Of a stretch of 64,000 bases of DNA, positions 6,041-56,671 are shown in pieces; position 1 is the stretch's first letter, and the number at the start of each line of letters is the position of its first letter. The translations under genes and the position numbers were made by a program. A model generated the notes under the pieces. It did no database searches, was not told where the DNA came from, and worked only from the letters and a program-made list of their open reading frames with translations. Origin of the DNA: a virus; the IMG/VR virus record IMGVR_UViG_3300035661_000043, positions 15,756 through 79,755 of that record; one strand, 5' to 3'.

Positions 6041-7486
6041 TTAGTTCAAGATATAGACAAAATTTCCACAGTCATATATTTGAAAATATCCAGCATTTTC
6101 CATAATCTGTCTTTCAGTTAAATCATCTTTATAATAAGTAGGTACTAATTTCTTTAGTTTGGATTTTTGTGTTTGATATCTTGAATACCAACCATTAAAA
6201 CTATGCCAGGAATAACCGGGTTCTGTTTTTCTTATATATTTCCCAAATCGGGAATATGTTTTGCCAGTGGATATTTTTCTGTCGCAATAAGTAAGAATAG
6301 GTTCTGTTGTTATATTATTTCTTACATATTTCATCAATTTTGAAAAACCACCAATGACTGTGACATTAAGTTTAGACGCCATTCTTATTAATTCAAAATT
6401 ACATTCTTTTGTGAATCTACTTTTTCCTATGGATATACACATGACGATCTCATTATCTGATAGAAGAGCAATATAGTTATTAGCAGGAGAAAATCCCTGA
6501 AGATGTGTTTTATCAAAAAATTCTCTTGCTTCTTTCGCTGCAATCTCTTTTATAGTTGTTTTTCTTGCATAGATTTTTTCTGAATTACCTAATTTGTTCA
6601 AAAGAATAGACTTCACAATTTCTGGTTTATGTTTCAATTCCTATTCAAATATATGCATAAGATTAACACCAATTTGAGAAGCCATTTCTGTTTTTTCTAG
6701 ATGAGATTTAATTTCATCTGATTTTTTAGTAGAATGCCAATAGATTCCATCAAATTCAATCCCAAGTTTTAGTTCTGGGATGTAAATGTCAATTTCTCTC
6801 GGAGTTATTACTGATCTACTATTTCTTACAGTATCAAAACCGAAAGATCTGATCCATGCATCTAATTCATCCTCACCAGCAGAACCTGTTTTGGCATAAG
6901 TAAAAAGATTATGATATGCATAATACTTTTGTACAAAAACTACATGAGCACCATTAAAGAATTTCATACTTAGTTCTGATAAAGATTTACACTCATCTCT
7001 AATAGAGCAGAGATAATCTTTGTCAAAATACATATCCAAATTTAAACCAAGTTCTGAAAATTTACTCTTTAAAGATTCGATCTTTCTAATTCCCCTTTTC
7101 TTTTTCTTTGATTCTTTTACACCAGGAATTCCATTATTCCATGAAACACCGTATTTTTCTTGGTAAGTTTTTCTAGCTTTTTCTGCACGTTGTTTAGAAT
7201 TATTTCTTTGAATTTCAGATATTTTGGCAACAGTAGAAGGTTCATTTGCTGCACATCTAGGAGAACATACTTTCTGACCGGGTTTCACATAGTGAATACC
7301 ACCACAGTAACATTTCATTGGCGGCATGTCGCTTATCAAGAAATCGATACGATCCCGCATGTTCCATTTTTCATAGCCAACGGCTGAAGTTTTCTCCATA
7401 ATATATGTAAATAGCCCATGAGACTTGAGATAATTCTCTTGCATTTTTCTGGGACTTTTTCTTACTTCTACAAGTTTTTCTTTCAT
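6041..7486 (-). CDS. Hef-like/Vsr-fold putative homing endonuclease (1 TAG at 6641)
   Basis: EIDIYIPELKLGIEFDGIYWHS, HIFE*E, ELIRMASK, YDCG; the two track ORFs are in frame across one TAG. Confidence 0.8.
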
Positions 7487-7586
7487 TCTAGCCTTAAATT
7501 GGTTATATCAATTTGATGATCTTGTTAATTAAACATGTCTACTAACCTTTTGTAACCTAATTGATGAATTAAGTGTTCAATCTTTT

Positions 7587-7615
7587 CACAAAACCGCCCG
7601 AAGGCGGTTTTTGTG
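7587..7615. terminator. Bidirectional intrinsic terminator, paralog of 6015-6038
   Basis: CACAAAACCGCC-CGAA-GGCGGTTTTTGTG. Confidence 0.8.
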
Positions 7616-7623
7616 TTTCTTCT

Positions 7624-9090
7624 TCATGTTAACACATACTTTAAATTGCCGCAATCATAGTATATCTTGAACTTATTATTAAACATATTCTGTTCTTCTG
7701 TTAAGTTTTGATCAAAAGTCTTTAACAGTGTCGATAATTTGGATTTTTGTGTTTTGTATCTGGAATATGTTCTTGATCCATTTGTCCAAACATACCCAGG
7801 ATCTGTCAATTTCAAGAATGTAAACTATGATTTTGCATATACATTCCCATTTGAAATTCTTCTGTCAGCATATGTAATAATAGAACCAGTATAGTTCTTT
7901 CTGAAATAATTTAGAATCTTCTGAAATCCACCTACAACAGTAGTATTCAATTTAGATGCAAATCTGATGATTTCCCACTCATAGTTCTTTTCAAATCTTG
8001 GTTTACCAAAAGTACAAACTGCTACTAATTCATTCTCATAATATAGACCGAGATTGACTTTAGACACTGCATATCCACTTAGATGTGTTGTTTCCAAGAA
8101 TTGCTTTGTATTTTTAGAATCAACTATTCTAAGATCACATTTTCTAGCATATATCTTTTCTGTGATGCCTAATTTAGAACGAATAATAGATTTGACTAAT
8201 TCCGGAGATTCTTTCCATTCTTCTTCTGTGATTCTTATAACAAGATTACCCGTTTTTTCTGCATCAATCACTTTCTTTTGATGTATTTTCTTTTCGGCAG
8301 ATGAGAGTTTTCTGTCTGATCCGTGAAAATATAGACCATCATATTCTATACCAAAATTCTTTTCTGGTACAAATATGTCTATCTCTCTTTTATCTGTGTC
8401 AAAAATTTTGACATTCTGTTGAACGTCAAATCCAATCGATTTGACGAATTCTGCAATTTGTTTTTGACCAGAAGAAATAGAATAGCCTACTTTCACTGGT
8501 ATTTCATGTAACGCAATATATTTTGCTATAGTTCCTTTGTCAATATCAAACTCCGATGATATATCCATATACGTCTTGTCTAATGTGATATACTGATTAT
8601 ATAGCCAATCTCTGTCTGAAACCATGGTTTCAATTCTTTTCTACAACTTAGATTTAGTCCATACGTGCTTTATATCTTCTCTTTGTGAGTTATATTCTAC
8701 CCCATATTTCTTAATCATTGTTTCTTTTCTGGATTGTTTTCTTTTTTCAAGAATTTCTGGATCTGAATCACGAGTTTTTACAGCAAGACGGATTCTTTCA
8801 ACATCTTTAGAAGAACATTTTTTTGAACAATAATCTGAAATTCCTTTGTCTCCAAATACGAACATTCTTCTATTTGTTTTACACACCGCACAAACCCCAG
8901 GTTCACACAATTGCATTTTGGCTAGTGTGAACAATTCTCTGACAGAATAGCCATCTCGTTCATATATATCTAAAATAGCTAGAATATGTGAAGTGTATTC
9001 AAATTTTGCACGAAGAAATTTGTAATTGCACCTCTTGCTAGGTATTTTTCCATTTACTTCTAGTGCTTCTATTATCTCATCAAACCACAT
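7624..9090 (-). CDS. Second Hef-like putative homing endonuclease (TAG at 8641 and 7825)
   Basis: YCSKKC, KKYGVEY, EIDIFVPEKNFGIEYDGLYFH, YDCGN; three track ORFs join in frame; AGGAG upstream of ATG 9090. Confidence 0.8.
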
Positions 9091-9398
9091 TTGGAAACTC
9101 CTATGTTCTATATTATATATTAATTTGATGATCCAGTGAAGTAAACGGAATGAATAATAGAAACTATTCATTACTTCAATGTGACTAATTTCTCACACAT
9201 AGACAAAGTTATGTTTGTCTGTGTCAGATCACTGCTAGACAAGATCGAAGCTGTAGGACAGTTAATGCAGGAGCCTACTGGTGTCTCCTTCGGTTTATGT
9301 TTCAATTCCTATTCGGACCCAAACCCTTAATTCACGGAGTGCGCGTATTTTTCTCACTTGGTACATAAATAGTACAACACACTTTCGGGGATATTCAA

Positions 9399-15324: not shown

Positions 15325-17031
15325 ATGATTATCTTCGAAAGTATAAGAATCAAGAACTTCCTCAGTTACGGCAATGCATGGACTGAATTAAATCTCAGAC
15401 AGGGAAAAGTACTAGTTGCAGGTGCCAATGGGGCAGGAAAATCTACTATGGTAACTGATGCTCTGTAGTATGCACTATTCGGTAAGCCATTTCGTAAGAT
15501 CAATATCCCACAATTGATCAACTCTATCAACCAGAAGGATTGCCAGGTAGAACTAGATTTCTAGATTGGCAAGGATTCTTACCAAATTAAGAGAGGGATG
15601 AAACCGGGGAAGTTCGAAGTATACAAAAATTCAGAATTGATAAAACAGGAAGCAGCAACAAAGGATTATCAATAGTATCTTGAGCAGCAAGTGCTGAAGA
15701 TAAATCATAAGACGTTTGTACAGATTCTTGTTCTTGGTTCTGCTGTTTTTACTCCTTTTATGCAATTAGCAGCCGGTCATAGAAGAAATGTGATTGAAGA
15801 TCTTCTAGATATCAATGTTTTCAGCACTATGCTTAGATTGCTTAAGGAAAAGATTCAAGTCAATAAAGAAGAAACTCTAATCATCAATGGTAAACTAGAA
15901 TCAGCTAAGAAGGAATAGATTGCACAGAAAAGACTCATTGAAACATTGAGTTCTAAGAGTGATGATCAATTGGTAATTCTGTATTCTGAACTCACATAGT
16001 TACAGAACGATATAGTATCGGCAAAATAGAAGAGAAATGATGTACACAAATTACTTGAATCTATCCAGATTCCTGACTTTATGTCAGAAGAATTAGAAGA
16101 TATAAGAGTTGAATTCAATACACTGAAAAAGTAGATTCAATCAGATATCAAGAAGATAGATTCAGTCTCCGCTATTCATTCATGCCCAACATGTTTACAG
16201 TCTGTAACTGATGATCACAAAGTAAGAATCAAGACTGAACTAAAATATAAGTATGATCAACAGAAACCGAAGCTAGATCAGTATTCTAAAAAAGTTGAAG
16301 AACTGACTACACAGAAAGAATTGTTTGATACAGCAAAGATCGAACAGCAGAAAATGTTGAAAGAACTTGCTGCGATAGACCAGAAAATAATTTCCCTTGA
16401 AGAACAAGAATCTTCCACACGAGTGAAGATCGAGACACAGAAACAAAGTTCTTCTGCAGACTTGGAAAAAGAAAAAGATCGACTCAGAGATTTAGCACAA
16501 TCTGCTCTTATGTTGATTGAACGCAAGAACGAATTGATCACAGAGAAATAGATTCAAGAAGTCTCTCTAGGTCTTCTGAAGGACACAGGTATTAAGGCTA
16601 GTATCATCAAAGAATACCTGCCGATTCTCAATAAGATGATCAACAAGTATCTATCTGAGTTCGACTTTTTCATTAATTTTGTATTGGATGAAAATTTCAA
16701 TGAACAGCTGTTGAGCAGAGGAAGAGATTCGGCTTAGTACTTCTCTCTATCAGAGGGTGAAAAGAAGCGAGTAGATGTTGCAATTCTTCTCGCATTCAGG
16801 CATATTGCTTCTCTAAAGAATTCTGCAAAGATCAATTTGCTTGTTCTTGATGAACTTGATTCTGGGTTGGATCACGACTCTCGTTTGAAGTTGCTAGAAT
16901 TGATCCAGACTATGGATTCCGATGTCTGGATGGTCTCCCACTCTATACAGAACACTGAACTTGAACAGCAGTTCGATAAGGTGACTTTTGTAATGAAGAA
17001 GGGAGATTTTTCAGAAATGATCATCAAGTGA
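15325..17031 (+). CDS. 46: Recombination ATPase gp46, Rad50-like (9 in-frame TAG)
   Basis: KNFLSYGN, GANGAGKST, LFGKPFR, CPTC hook, SEGEK, LDE; one frame to TGA 17029. Confidence 0.95.
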
Positions 17032-21327: not shown

Positions 21328-21912
21328 ATGTATTTGTATGACTTAGAGACACTTGGTGTAAATGAAACAGCTGTAGTACTTTCTATAGGTTGCATTTATA
21401 TCAGTTCACCAGAACCGTGTTCATATCATGATTTGATGAAGAATTCTTTCTTCGTGAAATTGGATGCTAAACATCAAATCCAAAAACTGGGTCGACAAGT
21501 TACTTCCTCTACCGTAGATTGGTGGGCAAAACAAAGCACCGCTGCTAAGCATACATCATATATCCCAAGTAAGAATGATGTGACACCTGACGTGGCGCTT
21601 CAGCAACTACGGAAGTTTGTCTATGACAACACCGGGCAATCTCGAGTCAAGTGCTATACTCGTGGATCCATGGATGTTATTGTTTCAGAGCATTTGGCTA
21701 AGCAAGTCGACATGAAACTTCCTTGGGTGTATAATAACTTCAGAGATATTCGTACTGCTATCGATATTCTATACACACTCAGTAAAGATGGGTATGTGGC
21801 AGTAGACCAGACAAAATGCTTTGGTTACACAGATGACATGACTATTGCGCACAACCCAGTGCACGACTGTGCTCGCGATGCTGCAATGCTACTTTTTGGA
21901 AAGACTGAATGA
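21328..21912 (+). CDS. DexA-like 3'-5' exonuclease
   Basis: DLETLG, TVDWW, RDIRT, HNPVHDCARD. Confidence 0.85.
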   Translation: MYLYDLETLGVNETAVVLSIGCIYISSPEPCSYHDLMKNSFFVKLDAKHQIQKLGRQVTSSTVDWWAKQSTAAKHTSYIPSKNDVTPDVALQQLRKFVYDNTGQSRVKCYTRGSMDVIVSEHLAKQVDMKLPWVYNNFRDIRTAIDILYTLSKDGYVAVDQTKCFGYTDDMTIAHNPVHDCARDAAMLLFGKTE

Positions 21913-23414
21913 CAAGATTTTATACAAACGTAGTAAGACTCGGGAACAATATCTGTGTCCGAGAGCAAACAGAAACTGGACCTAGCAAGTTTAAAACTCG
22001 TTACCAGCCAACATTATTTCTAAAGACCGACAAGGAGTCAAAGTTTAAGACTCTGTACGGAGATTTTGCTAAACCCGTGCAACAAGACTCGATGTCAGAA
22101 GCACGAGAGTTCATCAAGAAATATGAAGGTGTACGTGGGGTAGAATTGTTCGGTCAGCATAACTGGGTTCTTCAGTACATTAATGAGACATATTCTGGAT
22201 CAGTTAACTTTGACCCAAAACTGATTTCTGCTTGGTCTTTAGATATAGAAACGCTATTGTTTGAAGATGCAGAAGGAAAGATTACTGGCTTCCCGAATGC
22301 AGAGACAGGTGATTGTGAAATCACTCTTATCACAATTCAATGTCTGCAGAGCAAACAGTGCTTCACATTTGGCTCACGCGAGTATAAAGGTGAAAAAGTT
22401 CTTGATAGCAGGTACATGAACTGTGGATCTGAAAGGGAAATGCTTAAGCAGTTCATACAATTTTGGCAACTCAAATCAGTAGAAGTGATCACTGGATGGA
22501 ACATCGAGCGGTTTGATATTCCGTACATTGTGAATCGTGTAAAAGTAGTTCTCGGAGAAGAATGGGCCAAGAAGTTATCACCGTGGGAATCAGTTGAAGT
22601 TATTAAGAAACGTGTCTCCGGTGGGTTTGGTGGAGATGAAGAAATCATCTGTAATATTGCTGGTGTGTCTATTCTAGACTATATGGCTCTGTACAAGAAA
22701 TTTGTGTTTGTAAAACATGAATCTTACTCGTTAGGGCATATTGCACAGGAAGAACTTGGTGAGACCAAATTGGACCACTCGGAGTATAAGAACTTCAATG
22801 AGTTCTACTGGAAGGGGTTTGATGCAAAGTATGTTGACTATAACATCCGAGATACGCAACTTGTTGCTCGTCTTGAAGATAAATTGAAACTTATTGAGTT
22901 AGTCTATACTCTGGCATATTTGGCAAAAATCAACTTTACAGATGTTTTCAGTCCTGTAAAGATGTGGGATTCTATTCTCCACAACAGGCTGTTTGGTGAA
23001 AATACGGTTGTGCCACTGAAGGAACACAATCCTGATGGTGACAAGCACATCGAAGGTGCTTATGTAAAGGACCCATCAGTTGGTATGCATGAATGGGTTA
23101 TCTCATTAGATGCTACAAGCTTGTATCCATCCATCATGATGACACTGAATATCAGCCCAGAAACATATCGAGGTATTGACAAAGAATACAATGTTGATTC
23201 TTTGTTGGCTGGGAAAATGAAGTTGGATCCACCTCAAAATCAAGCATGGGGACCGAATGGTTCCAAGTTTGAAATTACTACACGCGGTGTTATCCCAAAG
23301 ATTGTAGAAGAAATGATGGCAGATAGGAAATCTTCTAAAAAGAAAATGCTTAATAGGACTCAGGATCTGGAACACATCAAGACAGAAATCACCAGGCGTG
23401 GATTGAAAGTGTAA
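21909..23414 (+). CDS. 43: DNA polymerase gp43, part A (exonuclease, motif A)
   Basis: DIET, GWN..FDIPY, YNIRD, DATSLYPS; ends at the fingers tip with TAA. Confidence 0.95.
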   Translation: MTRFYTNVVRLGNNICVREQTETGPSKFKTRYQPTLFLKTDKESKFKTLYGDFAKPVQQDSMSEAREFIKKYEGVRGVELFGQHNWVLQYINETYSGSVNFDPKLISAWSLDIETLLFEDAEGKITGFPNAETGDCEITLITIQCLQSKQCFTFGSREYKGEKVLDSRYMNCGSEREMLKQFIQFWQLKSVEVITGWNIERFDIPYIVNRVKVVLGEEWAKKLSPWESVEVIKKRVSGGFGGDEEIICNIAGVSILDYMALYKKFVFVKHESYSLGHIAQEELGETKLDHSEYKNFNEFYWKGFDAKYVDYNIRDTQLVARLEDKLKLIELVYTLAYLAKINFTDVFSPVKMWDSILHNRLFGENTVVPLKEHNPDGDKHIEGAYVKDPSVGMHEWVISLDATSLYPSIMMTLNISPETYRGIDKEYNVDSLLAGKMKLDPPQNQAWGPNGSKFEITTRGVIPKIVEEMMADRKSSKKKMLNRTQDLEHIKTEITRRGLKV

Positions 23415-23584
23415 GATCAAAAAGTTTCCGACTATTGATTTAGCTGGGACTTTTGTATATTACCAAATACACGTTCACTTTTCTTCATTCCCACAAACGG
23501 GAAGTAATTTTTCTTCGATATCAACAATTTTCAACCTTTACTATATCACCATATAGTATATTTTATTAGAACAGGACCTCATAT

Positions 23585-24229
23585 ATGGATCTTTCTAAAC
23601 TTTCCGATTCCGAATTGTTAAAACTCTACAATAAAGCAGAAGAGGAAATCTCCGCTCTTGATAACTTACAAATGGCACTCAAGATCTCTTTAAATTCACT
23701 TTACGGTGGAATTGGAAATCAAGGGTTCCGTTTCTTCAACTCTAATGTTGCAGAGACAATTACATTGACCGGTCAGTATGTTCTTCGGTCTATTGAGCAA
23801 AGCATCGATGATAAACTGAATAAAGTATTCAAGACAGAGGGTCACAAGTACCTGATCTATATCGACACTGATTCTGTCGTCGGAGATACAAAAATTTTAG
23901 TTAACGGCACTGAAACAACAATTGCAGATTATTATGATTCTAAGACGGAGTTCATCAAAAGAGATGAATTTAATAAAGACTATGTTAAAAAATGTGATTC
24001 AGATTACACACCTACTGTGAATCCAAATACACAGGTAATGGAAAATAAATCTGTTTCATATGTTATGAAACATAGAGTAAAAAAGAGAATGTATAAAATT
24101 ACTGTTGGTGGAAAAGAAGTAATTTGTACGAATGATCACTCAATTATTGTACGCAGGAATAGTCTCATTCTTTCCGTTATTCCCTCAGACATTCTGAAGA
24201 CTGATGAGTTAATACATATTAAGCACTGA
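23585..24229 (+). CDS. 43: DNA polymerase gp43, part B fused to split-intein N half (23873-24226)
   Basis: KISLNSLYG (motif B), YIDTD then SVVGDT..TNDHS; ends TGA. Confidence 0.92.
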   Translation: MDLSKLSDSELLKLYNKAEEEISALDNLQMALKISLNSLYGGIGNQGFRFFNSNVAETITLTGQYVLRSIEQSIDDKLNKVFKTEGHKYLIYIDTDSVVGDTKILVNGTETTIADYYDSKTEFIKRDEFNKDYVKKCDSDYTPTVNPNTQVMENKSVSYVMKHRVKKRMYKITVGGKEVICTNDHSIIVRRNSLILSVIPSDILKTDELIHIKH

Positions 24230-24288: not shown

Positions 24289-25242
24289 ATGCAATTAGAG
24301 TTCACAACTGATTTTCAGATTGAAGATTTAGGTGAGATCGAAGAAGATGTTTATGATATTGAAACAGAAGATAATCATAATTTTTTCGGCAACGGTGTTT
24401 TAGTACACAACAGTTGTTACATCAATGTCGCCCCAGTTGTACAGAAATATCTATCAGATATTCCCGATAAGTCTGAGATTATTAAACGATTAGAAAAATT
24501 GGCAGTTGATATTATTCAAAAGAATGTCAATGATATTGTGAATGATGTCTGTAAGCAAATGAATGTCTACGAGAACAAACTATCATTTAAATTAGAGGTA
24601 TGTGCAGATAAGGCAATCTGGTTAGCAAAGAAAAAATATGTAGTACGTGCATATTCTTCTGAGGGTGTTACATACTCAAAACCAAAATATAAAACGATTG
24701 GTTTGGAACTCGTCCGTTCGTCTACTCCAATGTTTATCCGTAAGAAGTTGAAGGATGTTCTCCCATTGGTGTTTGACACAGATCAAAGCACAATTCAGAA
24801 ATTTTTATTAGAAACTCGTAAAGAGTTTGATCAATTGTCGGTGCAAGAAATTGCATTTCCAAGATCTGCTAACAATTTAGAGGAATATTCCGATAGTCAA
24901 AATATCTACAAAAAGGGTGCTGGTGTGTCTACACCAATACATGCCCGCGCAAGTTTGTTGTATAATGATCTAATACGGAAGAAAAATCTTCAAGGGCAGT
25001 TTCCAATTATTGTTTCTGGTGCGAAGATCAAATTTGTGTATCTAAAACTACCAAATACTCTAAGAGAGAATGTCATTGCTTTCCCTGCTGATGAGACTCT
25101 TCCTATTGAATTTGACCTACACCAGAAGGTTGACAGAGATATTCAATGGGACAAAACGATGATTGCTTCTACACAGATCATTCTAGATTCAATTGGTTGG
25201 TCAGCTATCGAACAGTCAAGTTTAGATGACTTTTTTGGTTAA
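24289..25242 (+). CDS. 43: Split-intein C half (41 aa, 24289-24411) fused to gp43 part C
   Basis: VYDIETEDNHNFFGNGVLVHN|SCY, then AKKKY, GLELVRSSTP and C-terminal clamp-binding SLDDFFG. Confidence 0.92.
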   Translation: MQLEFTTDFQIEDLGEIEEDVYDIETEDNHNFFGNGVLVHNSCYINVAPVVQKYLSDIPDKSEIIKRLEKLAVDIIQKNVNDIVNDVCKQMNVYENKLSFKLEVCADKAIWLAKKKYVVRAYSSEGVTYSKPKYKTIGLELVRSSTPMFIRKKLKDVLPLVFDTDQSTIQKFLLETRKEFDQLSVQEIAFPRSANNLEEYSDSQNIYKKGAGVSTPIHARASLLYNDLIRKKNLQGQFPIIVSGAKIKFVYLKLPNTLRENVIAFPADETLPIEFDLHQKVDRDIQWDKTMIASTQIILDSIGWSAIEQSSLDDFFG

Positions 25243-32520: not shown

Positions 32521-32801
32521 GCATAACAAGAACGATACTTTATATCTTGTTAGGGTCTTAGGGAAACTTAAGATCCTTTTTGTTTATGATCTGCGATACT
32601 TTTAATCAAAGTTGTGTTATAATAAACACATGAAAACAAAACTTCAAACTGTTGTGTTAGGTGGGAGAGCTTATGTGGGTGGATTCATAAATCAAAACAA
32701 CTGGGTTGTGGATCTGAAGGGAAGAAATGTAGCTGAGTGCTATAGCAAAGAGGTTGCAAGAGCTCTTGCAAAAGAACTCAACAAAATGTTTGAATACGGT
32801 A

Positions 32802-33210
32802 ACAGCTTTTAATCAAAGTTGTGTTATAATAAAAGAAAAACAAGTGATCGGACTTGTTTGGATGGATCTTTTAAAATTTGTTGTCATAACGCTTTAGTGG
32901 TTATATTCTGACACAGTGTTACACAGTACAGTCTATGAGTTTTTTAGGATGTTGACAACAAATTTTAAAAGTTTCATTTAGTACAGCTTTTAATCAAAGT
33001 TGTGTTATAATAAACACATGGAAACAAACAAGGTGATAGGGCTTTGTTTGATGGATCTTTTAAAATTTGTTCTAGTTACGTGCACAATGGGTAGACATGT
33101 TGGTAGCTAAACATCAGTGGTGTTTAGAAATACGATTTGGTAACTAGAACAAATTTTAAAAGTTTCATTTAGTACAGCTTTTAATCAAAGTTGTGTTATA
33201 ATAAACACAT
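32802..33210 (+). repeat. Tandem promoter plus long-hairpin cassettes
   Basis: Constant flanks; inverted repeats 32868-32886/32953-32971 and 33057-33079/33140-33162. Confidence 0.8.
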
Positions 33211-34280: not shown

Positions 34281-34356
34281 GGGACTATAGTTTAATGGTT
34301 AAAACATCACCCCTTTAAGGTGTAAGCTCTCGGTTCGAATCCGAGTAGTCCTACCA
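34281..34356 (+). tRNA. tRNA-Lys(TTT)
   Basis: GGGACTA/TAGTCCT, CACC-CCTTTAA-GGTG, ACCA. Confidence 0.8.
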
Positions 34357-37454: not shown

Positions 37455-37820
37455 TGTGCGATATCTCTATCGCACATCAGAATGACTGTATGGATCTTCG
37501 GATCTGTGAAGTTGAAAGAAATGTGTTCAGGAAGCGAGTTCGAGTCTCGCCAGCTCCACCAGAAGTATATCATCTGATGCATTCTGTGTGCTGTATATAT
37601 TGCAAGTATTCAGTATACTTCTGATGGGGCTGTATTGGTTTCGACTGGGCAATGAGTATGGAGATGGACAGTTTGGCAACGCAGAAGCCATTATGATTGG
37701 GTCTTCCCGGTTGAAGAAGCAAACAAAAGTAAAAGCAAACGCTGATACATTCCTGATGGCGGCTTGATCGCCCAGTGAGGATTCCTTGGGTGTTCCTTAT
37801 TACCAAAACACCCATCCTAA
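37455..37820 (+). ncRNA. ssrA: Circularly permuted two-piece tmRNA; tag ANADTFLMAA (outer ends approximate)
   Basis: T arm plus CAGCTCCACCA ends at 37561, before GGGGCTGTATTGGTTTCGAC at 37626; G3-U70 pair; tag frame 37735-37767. Confidence 0.9.
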
Positions 37821-38877: not shown

Positions 38878-39141
38878 GCAAATTTAGCTCAATGGTTAGA
38901 GCAGCGGACTCATGAAAAATTGTGCACCTAGGTAGGGATGCTTAGTGTGAATGTTGTCAAATTCGAAGAAACCTAAGTCAGAAATGATATGGTAACCTCG
39001 AGCCAAGCCTGAGAAATTAGGTGCTGTGTAGAGACTAGACGGCAACCATCTAGAACAGATGAAGGTATAGTCCAGGGAGTGGCGAAAGTCACACAAACCA
39101 GAATCCGTTGGTTACAGGTTCGAGTCCTGTAATTTGCACCA
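38878..39141 (+). tRNA. tRNA(CAT), probably Ile2, interrupted by a group I intron
   Basis: Exon 1 38878-38913 ends CTCAT; exon 2 39102-39141 AATCCG..ACCA; the spliced product is a canonical cloverleaf. Confidence 0.92.
38914..39101 (+). mobile_element. Group I intron (188 nt), Azoarcus tRNA-Ile type
   Basis: GTCAAATTCG..AAACCTAAG, GAGCCAAGC, GTAGAGACTAGACGGC, ATAGTCCAGGGAGTGGCGAAAGTCAC, terminal G. Confidence 0.93.
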
Positions 39142-41704: not shown

Positions 41705-41764
41705 AGTATGTTATAATTACTCAACAACAAAAGAGAAACACTCTTTCTAACTTAATAGTTTAAT

Positions 41765-41854
41765 GGAAGTTTGGCAGAGTGGTTTATTGCCGCGGACTCT
41801 AAATCCGCTGAATCAGAGATGGTTCCACGAGTTCGAATCTCGTAACTTCCTCCA
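41765..41854 (+). tRNA. Amber-decoding tRNA with CUA anticodon and Ser-type body
   Basis: GGAAGTT/AACTTCC, GCGGA-CT-CTA-AA-TCCGC (anticodon 41799-41801), 6-bp variable stem with GAGA loop, perfect T arm, TCCA. Confidence 0.95.
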
Positions 41855-45278: not shown

Positions 45279-45798
45279 ATAATTCACCTATACCAAGAGA
45301 AATATCATGGAAATCAAACTCCATTCATATCACGAAGTTGAAATCATCGAATCTGAACGTGGCTATGATCAAAAGATCGATGCAGTGAAATATTTTGACT
45401 CGAAAGAAGATGCCATGTGCTTCTGTGCCGAGTTTAATGCGCAAAACACATCAAAGACTATACCAGTCAGGTATGCTGAATATGTTGGAAAGTTTGGTCA
45501 TTGAAATGAATAACACAATTGATGTCGATGAATTGCAGTACTCGAGTGAGTACGCCGAATACATCATGACACATGGAGACCGCCCGTGTTACAATGGTAG
45601 TATGCTCCTCGAACTGATGGAGCAGGGTTACTTATTCAGTGCTTTCTTGGAAAGCATTAATGAAGACGATGAATGACGGATGGTCCGATGCTATGACTAT
45701 CCCATATCTCTGTGATGCTGATGATAGAACTTCTTGTGGTGCAATGAACTACTTGATGAAGTGATATAATACATAATGGACCAATCAAATAGGAAATT

Positions 45799-47352
45799 AT
45801 GAAAAAGACGATTGAACAAAAATACCGTAAGCTGGATGAAATTTCTCACGTACTTTTGAGACCTGGAAGATATCTAGGTAGTATTACTCCGCACACCGCT
45901 GATGCATGGACTGTGACTGAATCTGGTACTATGCAAAAGAGGAGTCTGACATGGACTCCTGCTTTGCTTAAGATCTTTGATGAGATCATTTCTAACTCTG
46001 TTGACTTTAGCAAGACAGAAGAAGGAAAGCATCTGGATACTATCAAGGTGGATTTGAACCGGATAACTGGTGAGATCACAGTATACGATAATGGCGGTAT
46101 CGCTGTGATCAAACACAGTGAATATGATCAGTATATCCCGGAGATGATCTTTGAATTGCGCTCTGGATCAAATTTCGATGATTCGGAAGATAGCATGGCA
46201 ACCGGGCAGAATGGAGAAGGCTCAGCCCTAACAGCTATTTTCTCCTCTGAGTTCGAAGTACAGACTGCAGATGGATCTAATCAATTCATCCAGACTCGCA
46301 CCGACAATTCAAGGAAGATTTCCGACCCTAAAGTCAAGACATCAGATAAACACTTCACGAAGATTCGATTCATTCCGGACTATGAAAAGTTCGGTCTTGA
46401 TGGTCTTGATACCGATAATGAAGCTAGATTGATTAAGCGTGTATATGATGTAGCTGGCTGCAACCCAAAACTGAATGTATATCTCAATGGGAAGCGGATC
46501 AAGATTGCCTCATTCTCTGACTACGTGAAATTGTATACATCTGATTTTGTGCACGAAGAAAACGATCACTGGCATGTTGCATTGGCTGCTTCGGAAGATG
46601 GATTCAATCATGTATCATTTGTGAATGGTACAGAAACTACCACCGGGGGGAATCATATCAGCTACATCGCAGATCAGATCACGAACAAGCTGCGCGACTT
46701 CTTCAAAAAGAAACACAAAGTAGATGTGAAGCCAGGAGATATTCGGAATCACATGCTCCTGTTTATTGATGCCGGTATTATCAGACCAAGATATTCAAGC
46801 CAGACTAAAGAAGATCTGATTACAGAATCAAAGAACTTTGGTACTAGTATTGAAATTTCAGATAAGTTCATCCAAAAGGTTATCAAATCAAATATCGTTC
46901 AGTCTGTATTGGATTGGGTAAATGCAAAAGCTGCAGCAGCTGAAGCAGCGGAACTTCGCAAGAAATCAAAGGACATTGACAAGGCGAACCTACGAAAGAT
47001 CAGCAAGTTTACTGATGCCACACAGAAAGAAAATCGTGATCAATGCATGATTTTCATTGCCGAGGGTGAATCTGCTGCAAGTTCTATTCTGTCTGCGCGT
47101 ACAGGCAATATCGGTTGTTACCCATTGAAGGGTAAGCCGATTAACGCTATGGCTGCTACAACTAAGGATCTTCTTGATAATAAAGAATTCACTGAGCTGA
47201 TGACCGTCACAGGTCTGAAAATTGGTGAGAAAGTTAAAATAGAAGTAGATTCACTATATGAAATCTATATTGATGATATCTCATATATTGTGTCTACAGA
47301 AGATATCATTATTCACAAAGATAAACAATATATTGTAAAAGATTTAATCTGA
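45799..47352 (+). CDS. 39: Type II topoisomerase large subunit gp39 (ends inside the TOPRIM domain)
   Basis: HVLLRPGRY, EIISNSVD, DNGG, GQNGEG, EGESA, PLKGK; lacks DxDxDG; ends TGA. Confidence 0.95.
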   Translation: MKKTIEQKYRKLDEISHVLLRPGRYLGSITPHTADAWTVTESGTMQKRSLTWTPALLKIFDEIISNSVDFSKTEEGKHLDTIKVDLNRITGEITVYDNGGIAVIKHSEYDQYIPEMIFELRSGSNFDDSEDSMATGQNGEGSALTAIFSSEFEVQTADGSNQFIQTRTDNSRKISDPKVKTSDKHFTKIRFIPDYEKFGLDGLDTDNEARLIKRVYDVAGCNPKLNVYLNGKRIKIASFSDYVKLYTSDFVHEENDHWHVALAASEDGFNHVSFVNGTETTTGGNHISYIADQITNKLRDFFKKKHKVDVKPGDIRNHMLLFIDAGIIRPRYSSQTKEDLITESKNFGTSIEISDKFIQKVIKSNIVQSVLDWVNAKAAAAEAAELRKKSKDIDKANLRKISKFTDATQKENRDQCMIFIAEGESAASSILSARTGNIGCYPLKGKPINAMAATTKDLLDNKEFTELMTVTGLKIGEKVKIEVDSLYEIYIDDISYIVSTEDIIIHKDKQYIVKDLI

Positions 47353-47400
47353 AGTCAGACAATTTGGCTATATGTTTGTCAGAAATCGAAAGGATTGGAA

Positions 47401-47964
47401 ATGGAAATTAAAGTAAAAAAAATTGATGTCAATCATCAAAACATGACAAAATATCTTGGTGATAATAATGTTATCAGAAAGACTAATCTTAGAAGCAGTC
47501 TGCGCTTCGGCAAATTGGTTATGTGCGCAGACGCAGACGCAGATGGTTAGCTTCGGCTAACTAATCTATAAACTAATTTAAGAAAGAATATTGGCTCACA
47601 TATTTGTGGCTTAATTATGGCAGGGCTGAAGAAATTTTGGCCCGAATTATTTTCTCTAGGTGCAGTATATCGATTCCAGACACCGATTATGAAAGTTATG
47701 ATCGGCAAGGATGAAAAATATTTCTATTCACTTGATGAATTCTCTGTTTGGGAAAAGACTAATACTAAATCTTTCAAGACTCGGTATCTGAAAGGTCTTG
47801 GCTCTTCTACCGCGGAAGACTTCCGAGGTTATTTTGCTAACATGGATAACAATCTAGTGCAGATTACGTTACAATCTACTGATGATCTAGACATTGTTGA
47901 TCTGGTATTTGGTAAGGAAACAGGAGCAGCTGATGCTCGTAAAGTCTGGTTGGATTTGGAGTAA
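47401..47964 (+). CDS. 60: Topoisomerase small subunit gp60 with a 48-nt bypassed coding gap (47548-47595)
   Basis: MEIKVKKID..MTKY..NNV..RSS..CADADADG|gap containing TAG and TAA|SHICGL..RYLKGLGS. Confidence 0.9.
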
Positions 47965-47967
47965 TCT

Positions 47968-49278
47968 ATGGCAAAAATGAATATTAAAGACTTTTTCGGC
48001 ACTGCCGTGCGCGACTACTCCATTTATGCATGCGAACGTGCTATTCCATCTGGCTGTGATGGTCTCAAGCCAAGTCAGCGCAAGGTGTTGTATGGAATGA
48101 CAAAAGAATTTCCTACTCAGGAAGTGAAAGTTTCCATCTGCGCGGCTACTATCCAAGCAGTGACCGCATATCATCATGGTTCTTTGGAAGCAGTAGTCAC
48201 AGGAATGGCACAGAACTTTGTTGGTTCTAATAATGTCCCATTGTTGGAAGGCATCGGACAGTTTGGTTCTCGAATCACATCTACACCCGCAGCATCTCGG
48301 TACATTTTTGCTAAGTTGTCTCAGCAAGCGAAACAGCTGTTTAGGTCTGTAGATGACAATATTCTGGAATGGTTGGATGACGATGGTCAGAAAATTGAGC
48401 CAAAGTTCTACCTCCCAGTTCTACCTCTGGTTCTCATCAATGGTGCAGAAGGCATGGGTACTGGTTTCTCCACTTACATTATGGGGTATAAACCGGATGA
48501 TCTAAAGAAACGCACACTGGAAATCCTCAACGGAAGCAAGAAAAAGACTTCATTGACTCCTTGGTATCGAGGGTTCAGTGGCACTATTTCTAAGAATCTT
48601 GAAGGTCAGACTGTAACTACAGGTAAACTAGAAGTTGTTAATACTACAACGATCAAGATCACAGAGTTGCCAATCGGGATGTTTACGATGAAATACCGTG
48701 ATCATCTGAACTCAATGGAAGACAAAGATCTGATCAAGTCATATGATGACAATTCGAATGAGCAGAAAATTGAGTTCATTGTGAAGGTATCACGTGAATT
48801 TTCTGCTAAGTCTGAAGAAGAACTCATCAAGGCTTTCAAACTACAGAACCGTAATTCTGAGACTATTACCGTTTGGGATGAGAAGGAAAAGATTCGTAGG
48901 TTTGATTCAGCTGAGGACTTGTTGGAATGGTTTGTTGCATTCCGATTGATCAAGTACGAAGATCGCCGGGTGTACATGATTTCTGCGGCAGAAGAACGTG
49001 TCAAGAAAATGACAGAACAAATGCGGTTCATCCGATTGTATCTGAAACGTTCTTCTGTTTGGTCAAAGACTAAGATTGATCTGATTCGGCAAGAATTGAC
49101 TGACGAACTGTTTGAATCTATAGATGAATTACTTGCTATCCGTGTGTCTCGTCTTACCGGCGATGCGATCGAAGAACTTGAGCAGAAGATCAAAAATGAA
49201 CTTGACACGATCACTGCGTTGAAGAATACATCTGCTAAAGATTTGTATGTGGAAGATTTGAACAGCCTAAAGGTGTAA
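47968..49278 (+). CDS. 52: Topoisomerase medium subunit gp52
   Basis: RAIP..DGLKPSQRK, YHHG, GQFGSR, ASRYI. Confidence 0.95.
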   Translation: MAKMNIKDFFGTAVRDYSIYACERAIPSGCDGLKPSQRKVLYGMTKEFPTQEVKVSICAATIQAVTAYHHGSLEAVVTGMAQNFVGSNNVPLLEGIGQFGSRITSTPAASRYIFAKLSQQAKQLFRSVDDNILEWLDDDGQKIEPKFYLPVLPLVLINGAEGMGTGFSTYIMGYKPDDLKKRTLEILNGSKKKTSLTPWYRGFSGTISKNLEGQTVTTGKLEVVNTTTIKITELPIGMFTMKYRDHLNSMEDKDLIKSYDDNSNEQKIEFIVKVSREFSAKSEEELIKAFKLQNRNSETITVWDEKEKIRRFDSAEDLLEWFVAFRLIKYEDRRVYMISAAEERVKKMTEQMRFIRLYLKRSSVWSKTKIDLIRQELTDELFESIDELLAIRVSRLTGDAIEELEQKIKNELDTITALKNTSAKDLYVEDLNSLKV

Positions 49279-55607: not shown

Positions 55608-56618
55608 TTAAGAGATAACCCATCCCTTAGAAGCATCTACATATGTTAATGTGAGATTTGCATTCATTACATTTACAGTCATGTCTTCTGCAAAGCCCAT
55701 GATGTTTGATCCATTACGCAATAGTGTTGGTGTTACTGTATTACTACTATTGATGATCCGCACCCAGTCACCCATTACTGGGGTTGGAGGAAGTGTTATG
55801 TTTGCAGATGCAGTTAGGATATATGTTCTCTACTGGGTGACCTAAGTGTCTCCTGAAATCACATACACCTATTCTCTGTAATCAAGATTAGCAGAAGGAA
55901 TCTTCCCCACACCAATTCGACCTGATGTCTGAGTGTCACCCTATGCTGTGAATCTAATTCGCTCAATATTGTTTGTATTGATGATGAGATCTTTGTTATC
56001 TACTAGATTGATATAGGCATTACCAGATGCAACCTGCTGGACGATCAACCCTAATGCATTAGATTCATCCTTGACCCTAATACCTGGATTTGTACCTGCT
56101 ACATCTAATTTCCACGCTGGTGATACTACACCCAGTCCGATATTCCCGCTAACATCTTTAACAAACTGGTTGCTACCGATGGTGATCTCAGTTGTGTTGC
56201 CGGTGAAACCGTTGATCGTGGGAAGATTAAGAACTGGAGATGTCAATGTTTTATTTGTCAACGTCTGTACACTGTTTAGAGTCACACTATTAGAAGAAAT
56301 AGATGAAACCTACTGCTGCAGATTTGATATGTCCGAAGTTTGAGTGGATGTTAGAGTCTGTAGTGAACTTATGTTACCAGTATTAGTAGAAACATTTCCC
56401 TGGACAGTCGTGACTGTTCCAGAAAGAGTTGTGACTGTTCCAGAAAGAGTTGATAGGTTAGAATTTGTAGTACTATTCCCACTCTCAACCAATGCAAGTT
56501 CATCTGACAGAGACTTAAAATTGCCGTCAATTTCTTCATTCGTCAGAGGTGAACCCTTGACTGAGGTGCTATTTGGCACAGAAGGGGAACCGGTGCGATA
56601 TTTGATATTGGCTGCCAT
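55608..56618 (-). CDS. Virion fibre/baseplate-type structural protein (336 aa, 5 TAG)
   Basis: KGSPLTNEEIDGNF, coiled coil, QTLTNKTLTSP, GNIGLG, ITLP..GDWV, YVD..GW; one frame through five TAGs. Confidence 0.85.
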
Positions 56619-56671
56619 TATTTCTCCGGGCATAAATTAGTATAGAATATTTGTATTTAATAGGATTCAAC

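Follow-up and report, generated by a model that had tools for sequence, protein, structure and literature searches.

A gene 60-type translational bypass cassette with UAG at the take-off site in a T4-like phage that reads UAG as serine

The DNA analysed here, referred to as the window, is a stretch of 64,000 nucleotides (positions 15,756 to 79,755) of the IMG/VR virus record IMGVR_UViG_3300035661_000043, which is 79.7 kb in total and is estimated to be ~45% complete. The record represents an uncultured T4-like phage from mat and sediment metagenomes, and the T4-like gene set in the window comprises the portal gene gp20, gp21-23, gp19, UvsW, gp55, gp47/46, gp45, gp44, a DNA polymerase in pieces, UvsX, gp41, a tRNA block, genes 39-60-52 and rIIA/rIIB. 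The DNA polymerase is encoded by three consecutive ORFs (21909-23414, 23435-24229 and 24289-25242) whose PHROG coverage overlaps between the pieces; the middle one has two TAGs within its first 45 codons, and the pieces may be joined by split inteins. A permuted tmRNA match (37502-37767; Rfam RF04321, 94.7 bits), with the tag peptide ANADTFLMAA according to ARAGORN, is located inside the phage tRNA block, and a group I intron match (Rfam RF00028, 66 bits) occurs at 38902-39094 in the tRNA region. Two homing/HNH endonuclease-like genes of 481 and 515 aa (phrog_3339), each with in-frame TAGs, occupy 6041-9171 on the minus strand, after the major capsid gene and on the opposite strand to it.

Gene 39, which encodes the N-terminal part of the topoisomerase II large subunit (517 aa; phrog_543, E 1e-135), is located at 45799-47352 on the + strand. 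It is colinear with uninterrupted relatives until about residue 480, and the break point lies directly after GEK, the same as in T4. Residues 481-517 (47239-47349) form an insert-derived C-terminal extension, which is missing from the uninterrupted relatives and whose similarity to T4 is not significant. The spacer between genes 39 and 60 (47353-47400) is 48 nt in all, with an AAGGA ribosome-binding site at 47390-47394, and no homing endonuclease gene is present there. Gene 60 as a whole extends over 47401-47964 on the + strand, with its start ATG at 47401 behind this ribosome-binding site, and is followed on the same strand by gene 52 (47968-49278), which encodes the topoisomerase II medium subunit (phrog_551, E 1e-132) and contains no TAG.

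The first reading frame of gene 60 (47401-47547, + strand) encodes Met1-Gly49. Its first ~33 residues are an insert-derived N-terminal extension, not found in uninterrupted relatives, that holds the nascent-peptide signal KY..NNV.R, and after it comes a stretch homologous to the parental gene, ending DADADG. The original prediction placed a bypass take-off stop, in conflict with amber recoding, within 47545-47571, and GAT GGT TAG is indeed located at 47542-47550. GGT (Gly49, 47545-47547, + strand) is the take-off codon, and the A-site codon TAG (47548-47550), followed by C, is a nominal stop that serves as a Ser codon in this phage. A take-off stem-loop at 47544-47563 (+ strand), with the sequence UGGUUAGC-UUCG-GCUAACUA, consists of 8 bp capped by a UUCG tetraloop, and its A-site part is UAGC-UUCG-GCUA. 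The predicted fold is -9.6 kcal/mol (z = -3.4), compared with -14.7 kcal/mol for the T4 counterpart, and the A-site hairpin has just two G-C pairs, one G-C pair fewer than in T4.

After the TAG, frame 0 reads L-R-L-T-N-L and then reaches an in-frame TAA inside the gap (47569-47571, + strand), in agreement with the predicted read-through product DG-SLRLTNL; this TAA is the sole barrier to in-frame read-through once the TAG has been decoded. The untranslated gap (47548-47592, + strand) is 45 nt long, or 48 nt including the landing codon, and is therefore in frame. Its 3' half is A/U-rich, with AAG at the place of the GAG mini Shine-Dalgarno of T4, where such a motif is defined as GAG, GGG, GGA or AGG situated 5-7 nt before the landing codon in A/U-rich surroundings. 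The landing codon GGC (47593-47595, + strand) is assigned by colinearity with the uninterrupted relatives. GGT 47545 and GGC 47593 occupy the same position of the DxDxDG motif, and the same tRNA-Gly(GCC) reads both. Decoding restarts at TCA 47596, from which the second reading frame (47596-47964, + strand) runs through 122 codons and a stop without any TAG. As had been claimed, no other in-frame TAG is found in gp39, the resumed part of gene 60 or gp52. In addition, a candidate 5' stem-loop of 6 bp with a weak fold (47500-47530, + strand) ends 14 nt before the take-off codon, and another stem-loop (47623-47643, + strand), 28 nt after the landing codon, is a possible, though unproven, barrier to forward slippage.

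What TAG means in this phage can be read from the rest of the window. When the first 33 kb are read with the standard code, TAG is the only codon that interrupts conserved genes; if TAG is taken as sense, single Pfam or PHROG domains run across the TAGs, and 27 of the 41 ORFs in these 33 kb end in TAA and 14 in TGA. There are 42 sense TAGs in 12 genes, that is, 42 of the 9157 codons (0.46%) in 24 well-supported genes, so that TAG is among the rarest codons. Nine of them are in gp46, six in gp41, eight in an uncharacterised conserved protein and three in gp19, and TAG also occurs inside gp20, gp55, gp47, gp44, UvsW and a DinG-like helicase. Since gp46 needs nine UAGs to be read, the UAG reader must be efficient. 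A tRNA-Ser-like amber decoder with anticodon CUA is encoded at 41765-41854 on the + strand (ARAGORN; Rfam 54 bits; cloverleaf fold). This tRNA(CUA) has a long variable arm, an encoded CCA and the discriminator U73, and within the T4 genome it matches tRNA-Ser best, the two D-arms being nearly identical; a caveat on the Ser identity is that the discriminator is U, compared with G in T4 tRNA-Ser. ARAGORN gave no confirmation of a tRNA-Ser(GCT) sharing its acceptor end.

The portal gene gp20 carries an intein at 924-1559. By the chemistry of intein splicing, the +1 residue must be Cys, Ser or Thr, and this extein nucleophile is encoded here by TAG 1557, the residue directly after the terminal Asn of the intein, where T4 gp20 has Ser. 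Consequently, portal maturation depends on the insertion of Ser at UAG. Opposite TAG, standard-code homologs mostly have C, S, T, N or D, and Q in one case only. UAG is therefore serine on three independent grounds (the tRNA type, the intein +1 residue and the homolog residues), and the original assignment is borne out by the 42 in-frame TAGs, tRNA(CUA) and the portal intein. Gln, as in NCBI code 15, was considered for TAG as well and is disfavoured by the intein +1 residue, the Ser-type tRNA and the single Q among the homolog residues.

The base after the sense TAGs is A in 20 cases, G in 12, T in 9 and C in 1 (C expected in ~6.7; binomial P about 0.006), counted over the 12 well-supported genes at 108-30112 and 55608-56633, which suggests that decoding of the reassigned TAG follows a context rule in which C is avoided. 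Classical suppressor work found amber codons with a pyrimidine next to be poorly suppressed. The bypass site reads UAG-C, that is, the context avoided among the sense TAGs, because this C pairs in the stem.

The large-subunit gene is uninterrupted in 12 related phage loci found with gp39 as query and in 80 found with an alignment of the C-terminal part as query. These relatives read ...RFGK....D.D.DG-xHIxGL...FWPE, or in short ...DxDxDG-xHIxGL..., and excising exactly 48 nt from gene 60 restores colinearity with them, giving DADG-SHI; the bypass layout did not arise as a random pattern. A 92% identical protein, P0004, reads ...LRFGKLVMCADADADG-NHICGL... (...CADADADG-NHICGL) unbroken and without the insert; consequently, the insertion is either evolutionarily recent or repeatedly lost. 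The gene 60 N-terminus gives a local score of 45 against T4 gp60, where shuffled sequences give 21.9 +/- 4.9 and 0 of 500 reach 45, and the similarity takes in the Tyr, NNV and Arg of the nascent-peptide signal. A blastn search of 47300-48000 against 50,697 phage records returned no match, and a single-protein scan returned no relatives of the second frame. The 80 loci came from the alignment-based scan, all of them uninterrupted, and no second recoded phage with the cassette is among them. The closest gp39 relative, G004 (24.9 kb), is without tRNA(CUA), and covers only the region that is free of TAG in the window too.

The same take-off hairpin is found in 7 other cassettes, among them G002 and G003, in which gp46 is without internal stops and which probably use the standard code. 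As the hairpin is shared with at least two phages that are probably of standard code, the UAG would have arrived with the element, and it appears to be a trait inherited with the mobile cassette and not one that arose as an adaptation in this phage; likewise, the same short hairpin in G002 and G003 gives no sign that the cassette has adapted to the recoded host. The gaps of the other cassettes with this hairpin are 44, 47, 49 and 50 nt long, and an in-frame gap of 48 nt is found only in L047, a metagenome contig that carries the closest cassette. Its flanking coding parts are 63-71% identical to those of the window, and the gap past the hairpin is not conserved as a peptide between the two. 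For the first frame, pN is 0.27 against L047, with synonymous sites saturated; for the second frame, comparison with L047 gives a pN of 0.18 and comparison with L002 one of 0.26, at a pS of about 0.75-0.77. Judged from these substitution patterns, both frames of gene 60, the N-terminal extension included, clearly appear to be under purifying selection, and no frame-breaking change was seen between the cassette-bearing lineages compared. Since the second frame can be reached only by a hop, purifying selection on it is indirect evidence that the hop is used; we infer the hopping itself, then, by way of a joined protein that selection on both frames would support.

Contigs from X5, a public soil-metagenome run, align with 47466-47741 without gaps and with 33 differences. 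Of the differences listed, none falls between 47527 and 47612, 4 are in the preceding 28 nt and 19 in the following 85 nt, those beyond these being accounted for by the excluded end zones of the contig. With its UAG and TAA, the cassette as a whole is thus either frozen in this relative or was transferred recently, the sequence around it being ~18% diverged. P0005 and P0006 (85-86% identical proteins) probably carry the cassette as well.

The locus shares several features with the T4 gene 60 bypass. The split site after GEK is the same, the N-terminal extension is homologous and includes KY..NNV.R, a Gly take-off codon is followed by UAG-C in a UUCG-capped hairpin, the gap is A/U-rich, and a Gly landing codon stands just ahead of the xHIxGL helix. 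However, the codon pair is GGU/GGC where T4 has GGA/GGA, and the gap measures 48 nt and keeps the frame, compared with 50 nt in T4. The hairpin is one G-C pair short, AAG is found at the place of the T4 mini Shine-Dalgarno (GAG), nothing is left of an endonuclease, and genes 39, 60 and 52 are adjacent. The chief difference from T4 is that UAG is a sense codon in this phage.

Some of these deviations are known from the survey of Manning and Atkins, who reported GGU/GGC pairs and a cleanly excised endonuclease in metagenomic cassettes, close relatives without the insert, and the rare codon AGG at the A site in Acinetobacter phages (bioRxiv 10.1101/2022.08.31.505936). Since MobA members without endonuclease are known, the missing endonuclease does not exclude membership in this family of mobile elements. 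L048 matches one sequence in their alignment, and the peptides of the window are absent from their supplementary files. Thr/Ser40, present in all cassettes according to these authors, is Ala here, and their paper never mentions amber suppression or recoding. Its Introduction does describe the 'byp' elements of Magnusiomyces mitochondria, which are similar in that the take-off A-site codon is a poorly served sense-type triplet and no stop; 'byp' differs in being an unrelated element on a mitochondrial ribosome, with no nascent-peptide signal, and in that the cognate tRNA is absent there and present here. With the recoded phages of Borges et al. (bioRxiv 10.1101/2021.08.26.457843) the phage shares a suppressor tRNA, partial in-frame stops and gene blocks compatible with the standard code. 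Unlike in those phages, however, TAG is Ser and not Gln, a T4-like phage of mat and sediment metagenomes is concerned instead of a member of the gut crAss, Lak or related clade, and the recoded codon is carried by replication genes and not only by late or lysis genes. Among the recoded phages described so far, a T4-like phage with TAG as Ser is an uncommon case.

The reading that we favour, to which we would give about an even chance, is that the locus genuinely belongs to the gene 60-type bypass cassettes of the MobA family of mobile elements and has lost its endonuclease, that UAG is not a terminator in it, and that the hairpin excludes the tRNA. Membership in the family follows from the colinearity, the T4-like N-terminal extension and the take-off hairpin. 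On this reading, ribosomes would translate codons 1-49 of gene 60, and with peptidyl-tRNA-Gly on GGU (47545), UAGC-UUCG-GCUA would fold within the A site while the insert-encoded nascent peptide keeps the ribosome inactive. The peptidyl-tRNA would then be released from its codon, and the ribosome would slide over 45 nt, re-pair with GGC (47593) and restart at UCA (47596). UAG would serve as one segment of the hairpin and as an A-site triplet that is hard to decode, not as a terminator. Ser-tRNA(CUA) would be a second competitor next to RF1, kept off by the hairpin, the peptidyl-transferase lock and the unfavourable UAG-C context. Those ribosomes that do decode UAG would end seven codons on at UAA 47569 and be lost with a short fragment, in parallel with the drop-off in T4, and a dedicated temporal switch would be unnecessary.

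Part of the support for this mechanism comes from T4. The original prediction held that bypassing needs a UAG stalled in the A site, and this stands in part: for take-off it is important that the UAG in the A site is decoded slowly (bioRxiv 10.1101/2022.08.31.505936, Introduction; bioRxiv 10.1101/2024.12.09.627546), whereas UAG is no terminator there (PMC5462505). Moreover, the A-site hairpin and an uninduced or locked peptidyl-transferase centre exclude RF1 and near-cognate tRNAs (PMC5462505, PMC6551183, PMC11194080). The prediction had also offered exclusion of the tRNA by the hairpin as an explanation, which agrees with the T4 mechanism as far as RF1 and near-cognates are concerned (PMC5462505); for the cognate case it is an extension by analogy, under which tRNA(CUA) would be largely excluded from the A site. 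In natural cassettes the A site can be occupied by the rare sense codon AGG (bioRxiv 10.1101/2022.08.31.505936), and the present case extends this type to a codon that is rare and has a cognate tRNA. In the accessible literature, we found no test of a cognate tRNA, an amber suppressor or a sense codon at the T4 site.

The weak hairpin with two G-C pairs is the main argument against exclusion by the hairpin. Its A-site part, UAGC-UUCG-GCUA, is exactly that of the '-GC' mutant of T4, for which more RF1 entry and read-through were seen (PMC5462505), and greater hairpin stability leads to higher bypass efficiency (PMC6551183). In addition, His44 of T4, which is said to clash with RF1, is Ala here, and the mini Shine-Dalgarno is AAG and not GAG.

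Promoter-like motifs bear on the timing of the genes concerned. The motif TGNTATAAT occurs in 22 copies, all on the + strand (5967-59313) and all just upstream of genes or tRNAs, where ~4.5 copies would be expected and 0 of 100 shuffles reach 22. A (G)CTTTTAWTC box, resembling the T4 MotA box in sequence and position, is found about 8-9 nt upstream of 13 of the 22 copies, and the other 9 are bare. Among the bare copies, which take the form of an extended -10 motif without upstream box, are TGTTATAAT at 41709-41717 (+ strand), 47 nt before tRNA(CUA), and TGATATAAT at 45762-45770 (+ strand), 29 nt before the gene 39 start; others precede gp55-gp47-gp46 (13626; 12 TAGs), gp45 (17073), gp44 (17788) and the polymerase operon (21287). 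Judged by these copies, tRNA(CUA), the TAG-rich replication genes and the topoisomerase operon would share one promoter-like class. A generic sigma-70 promoter scan gave fewer matches than shuffled sequences and is uninformative, and the T4 late-promoter motif TATAAATA has two occurrences only. No member of the MotA or AsiA families turned up in the record of 79.7 kb (~45% complete), but the control genomes gave no match either, so that this result is uninformative. Three near-identical promoter-containing units (...CAGCTTTTAATCAAAGTTG-TGTTATAAT...), ~190 nt apart, were also noticed at 32580-33210, upstream of the tRNA cluster.

It had been proposed that topoisomerase synthesis is separated in time from UAG decoding, so that gp60 would mostly be made before Ser-tRNA(CUA) builds up and would then be throttled; in this scheme gene 60 would lie within a block readable under the standard code of the host. 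This temporal or kinetic partition, which we consider rather unlikely, is kept as the main rival on account of a 22-kb block without TAG. The earlier claim concerned the topoisomerase genes alone, but TAG is missing from all + strand genes at 42-64 kb (5908 codons, 39, 60, 52, rIIA and rIIB included), where ~27-40 TAGs would be expected at the rates of 0.46-0.69% seen elsewhere, and a minus-strand ORF within the same block has five. For recoded phages of other kinds, a model with early genes under the standard code and a later change of code has been put forward (bioRxiv 10.1101/2021.08.26.457843), and the weakened hairpin should guard poorly against a cognate tRNA. However, tRNA(CUA) is preceded by a promoter-like motif of its own that belongs to the class found before gene 39, and this class, common to tRNA(CUA), gene 39 and the TAG-rich early genes, counts against a switch. 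UAG decoding is also needed by gp41, gp44, gp46, gp47, gp55 and a DNA polymerase piece, all of which are pre-replicative genes in T4, like topoisomerase. Furthermore, the TAG-free genes include the late gp22 and gp23 as well as the early gp43 main parts, gp45 and UvsX, and the TAG-bearing genes likewise span early and late classes; the absence of TAG is therefore no marker of timing. As far as can be judged from the sequence, the temporal switch of the original prediction is without support, and no sign of a dedicated timing switch is apparent.

A tolerated defect, in which a parasitic cassette works poorly in a recoded phage, gp60 stays low and host gyrase substitutes, appears still less probable than a temporal partition. 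T4 genes 39, 52 and 60 are 'DNA-delay' genes and non-essential, and such a defect would fit the hairpin being weaker than that of T4 (-9.6 vs -14.7 kcal/mol), the weak mini Shine-Dalgarno, the presence of a cognate tRNA for the A-site codon and the lack of the insert in the 92% identical P0004. Yet purifying selection on both frames and the N-terminal extension in two lineages, with synonymous sites saturated, is hard to reconcile with it, as is a cassette core that is identical in the diverged X5 relative, with no frame-breaking changes seen. It is far less probable again that there is no hop at all, with tRNA(CUA) reading the TAG and a second tRNA reading the TAA to give a full-length protein with 16 extra residues after DxDxDG. 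Both suppressor-type tRNAs are encoded in the window, the second being of ochre-suppressor type with anticodon UUA (34281-34356, + strand; ARAGORN; Rfam 67.3 bits, the top-scoring tRNA of the window), which could read the TAA backstop in the gap. The gap is also divisible by three, and L047, the closest cassette, has a 48-nt in-frame gap too. But the gap peptide past the hairpin is not conserved with L047, in spite of flanks that are 63-71% identical, and the gaps of other cassettes measure 44, 47, 49 and 50 nt. TAA is the commonest genuine stop (27 of 41 ORFs in the first 33 kb), and rIIA and rIIB end in it, so that efficient read-through of TAA would harm the phage. The bypass signals appear to be retained, moreover, and the insert would fall within the Toprim metal-binding motif.

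The type of cassette is already known, and its coexistence with amber-to-serine recoding appears to be new, no description of the two together having been found in the literature searched. Studies of T4 gene 60 over thirty-five years have regarded the UAG that follows the take-off codon as a slow, unread triplet. The reverse case is encountered here, where the same cassette occurs in a phage with an efficient UAG reader of its own, and the phage thus offers a natural test of whether the hop requires a true stop codon. Comparing the hop with and without tRNA(CUA) would bear on how far a cognate ternary complex can be kept out by the A-site hairpin and the nascent peptide, more widely on ribosome stalling by A-site mRNA structures in general, and also on what happens when a mobile recoding element lands in a genome with another genetic code. 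Given that the A-site triplet is the reassigned UAG and that the hairpin has only two G-C pairs, the level of tRNA(CUA) would set the fraction of ribosomes that hop. We put forward such a coupling between the code switch and topoisomerase output tentatively, as possible but doubtful; if it is true, the molecule that turns on the TAG-containing genes also tunes or shuts off gp60 synthesis. Even without regulation, an efficient hop in spite of an efficient cognate tRNA would mean that take-off needs the hairpin and the nascent peptide only.

Several further observations concern the genes discussed above. The minus-strand ORF at 55608-56633 has 341 codons with Thr/Ser/Gly-rich repeats, five in-frame TAGs and no PHROG match, and because of it the + strand ORFs at 56017-56640 look spurious. 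In other phages, an intein is lodged at this DxDxDG site of the large subunit of topoisomerase, as in L088:2880-3030 and the protein P0021 (...AKN/CDG... or ...AHN/CDG...), and the site is a hot spot for different mobile elements. Finally, P0018, a homolog of 177 aa, represents a split gene in which bypass has been lost or was never present, its T4-like N-terminal extension being fused straight to the second frame without any gap.
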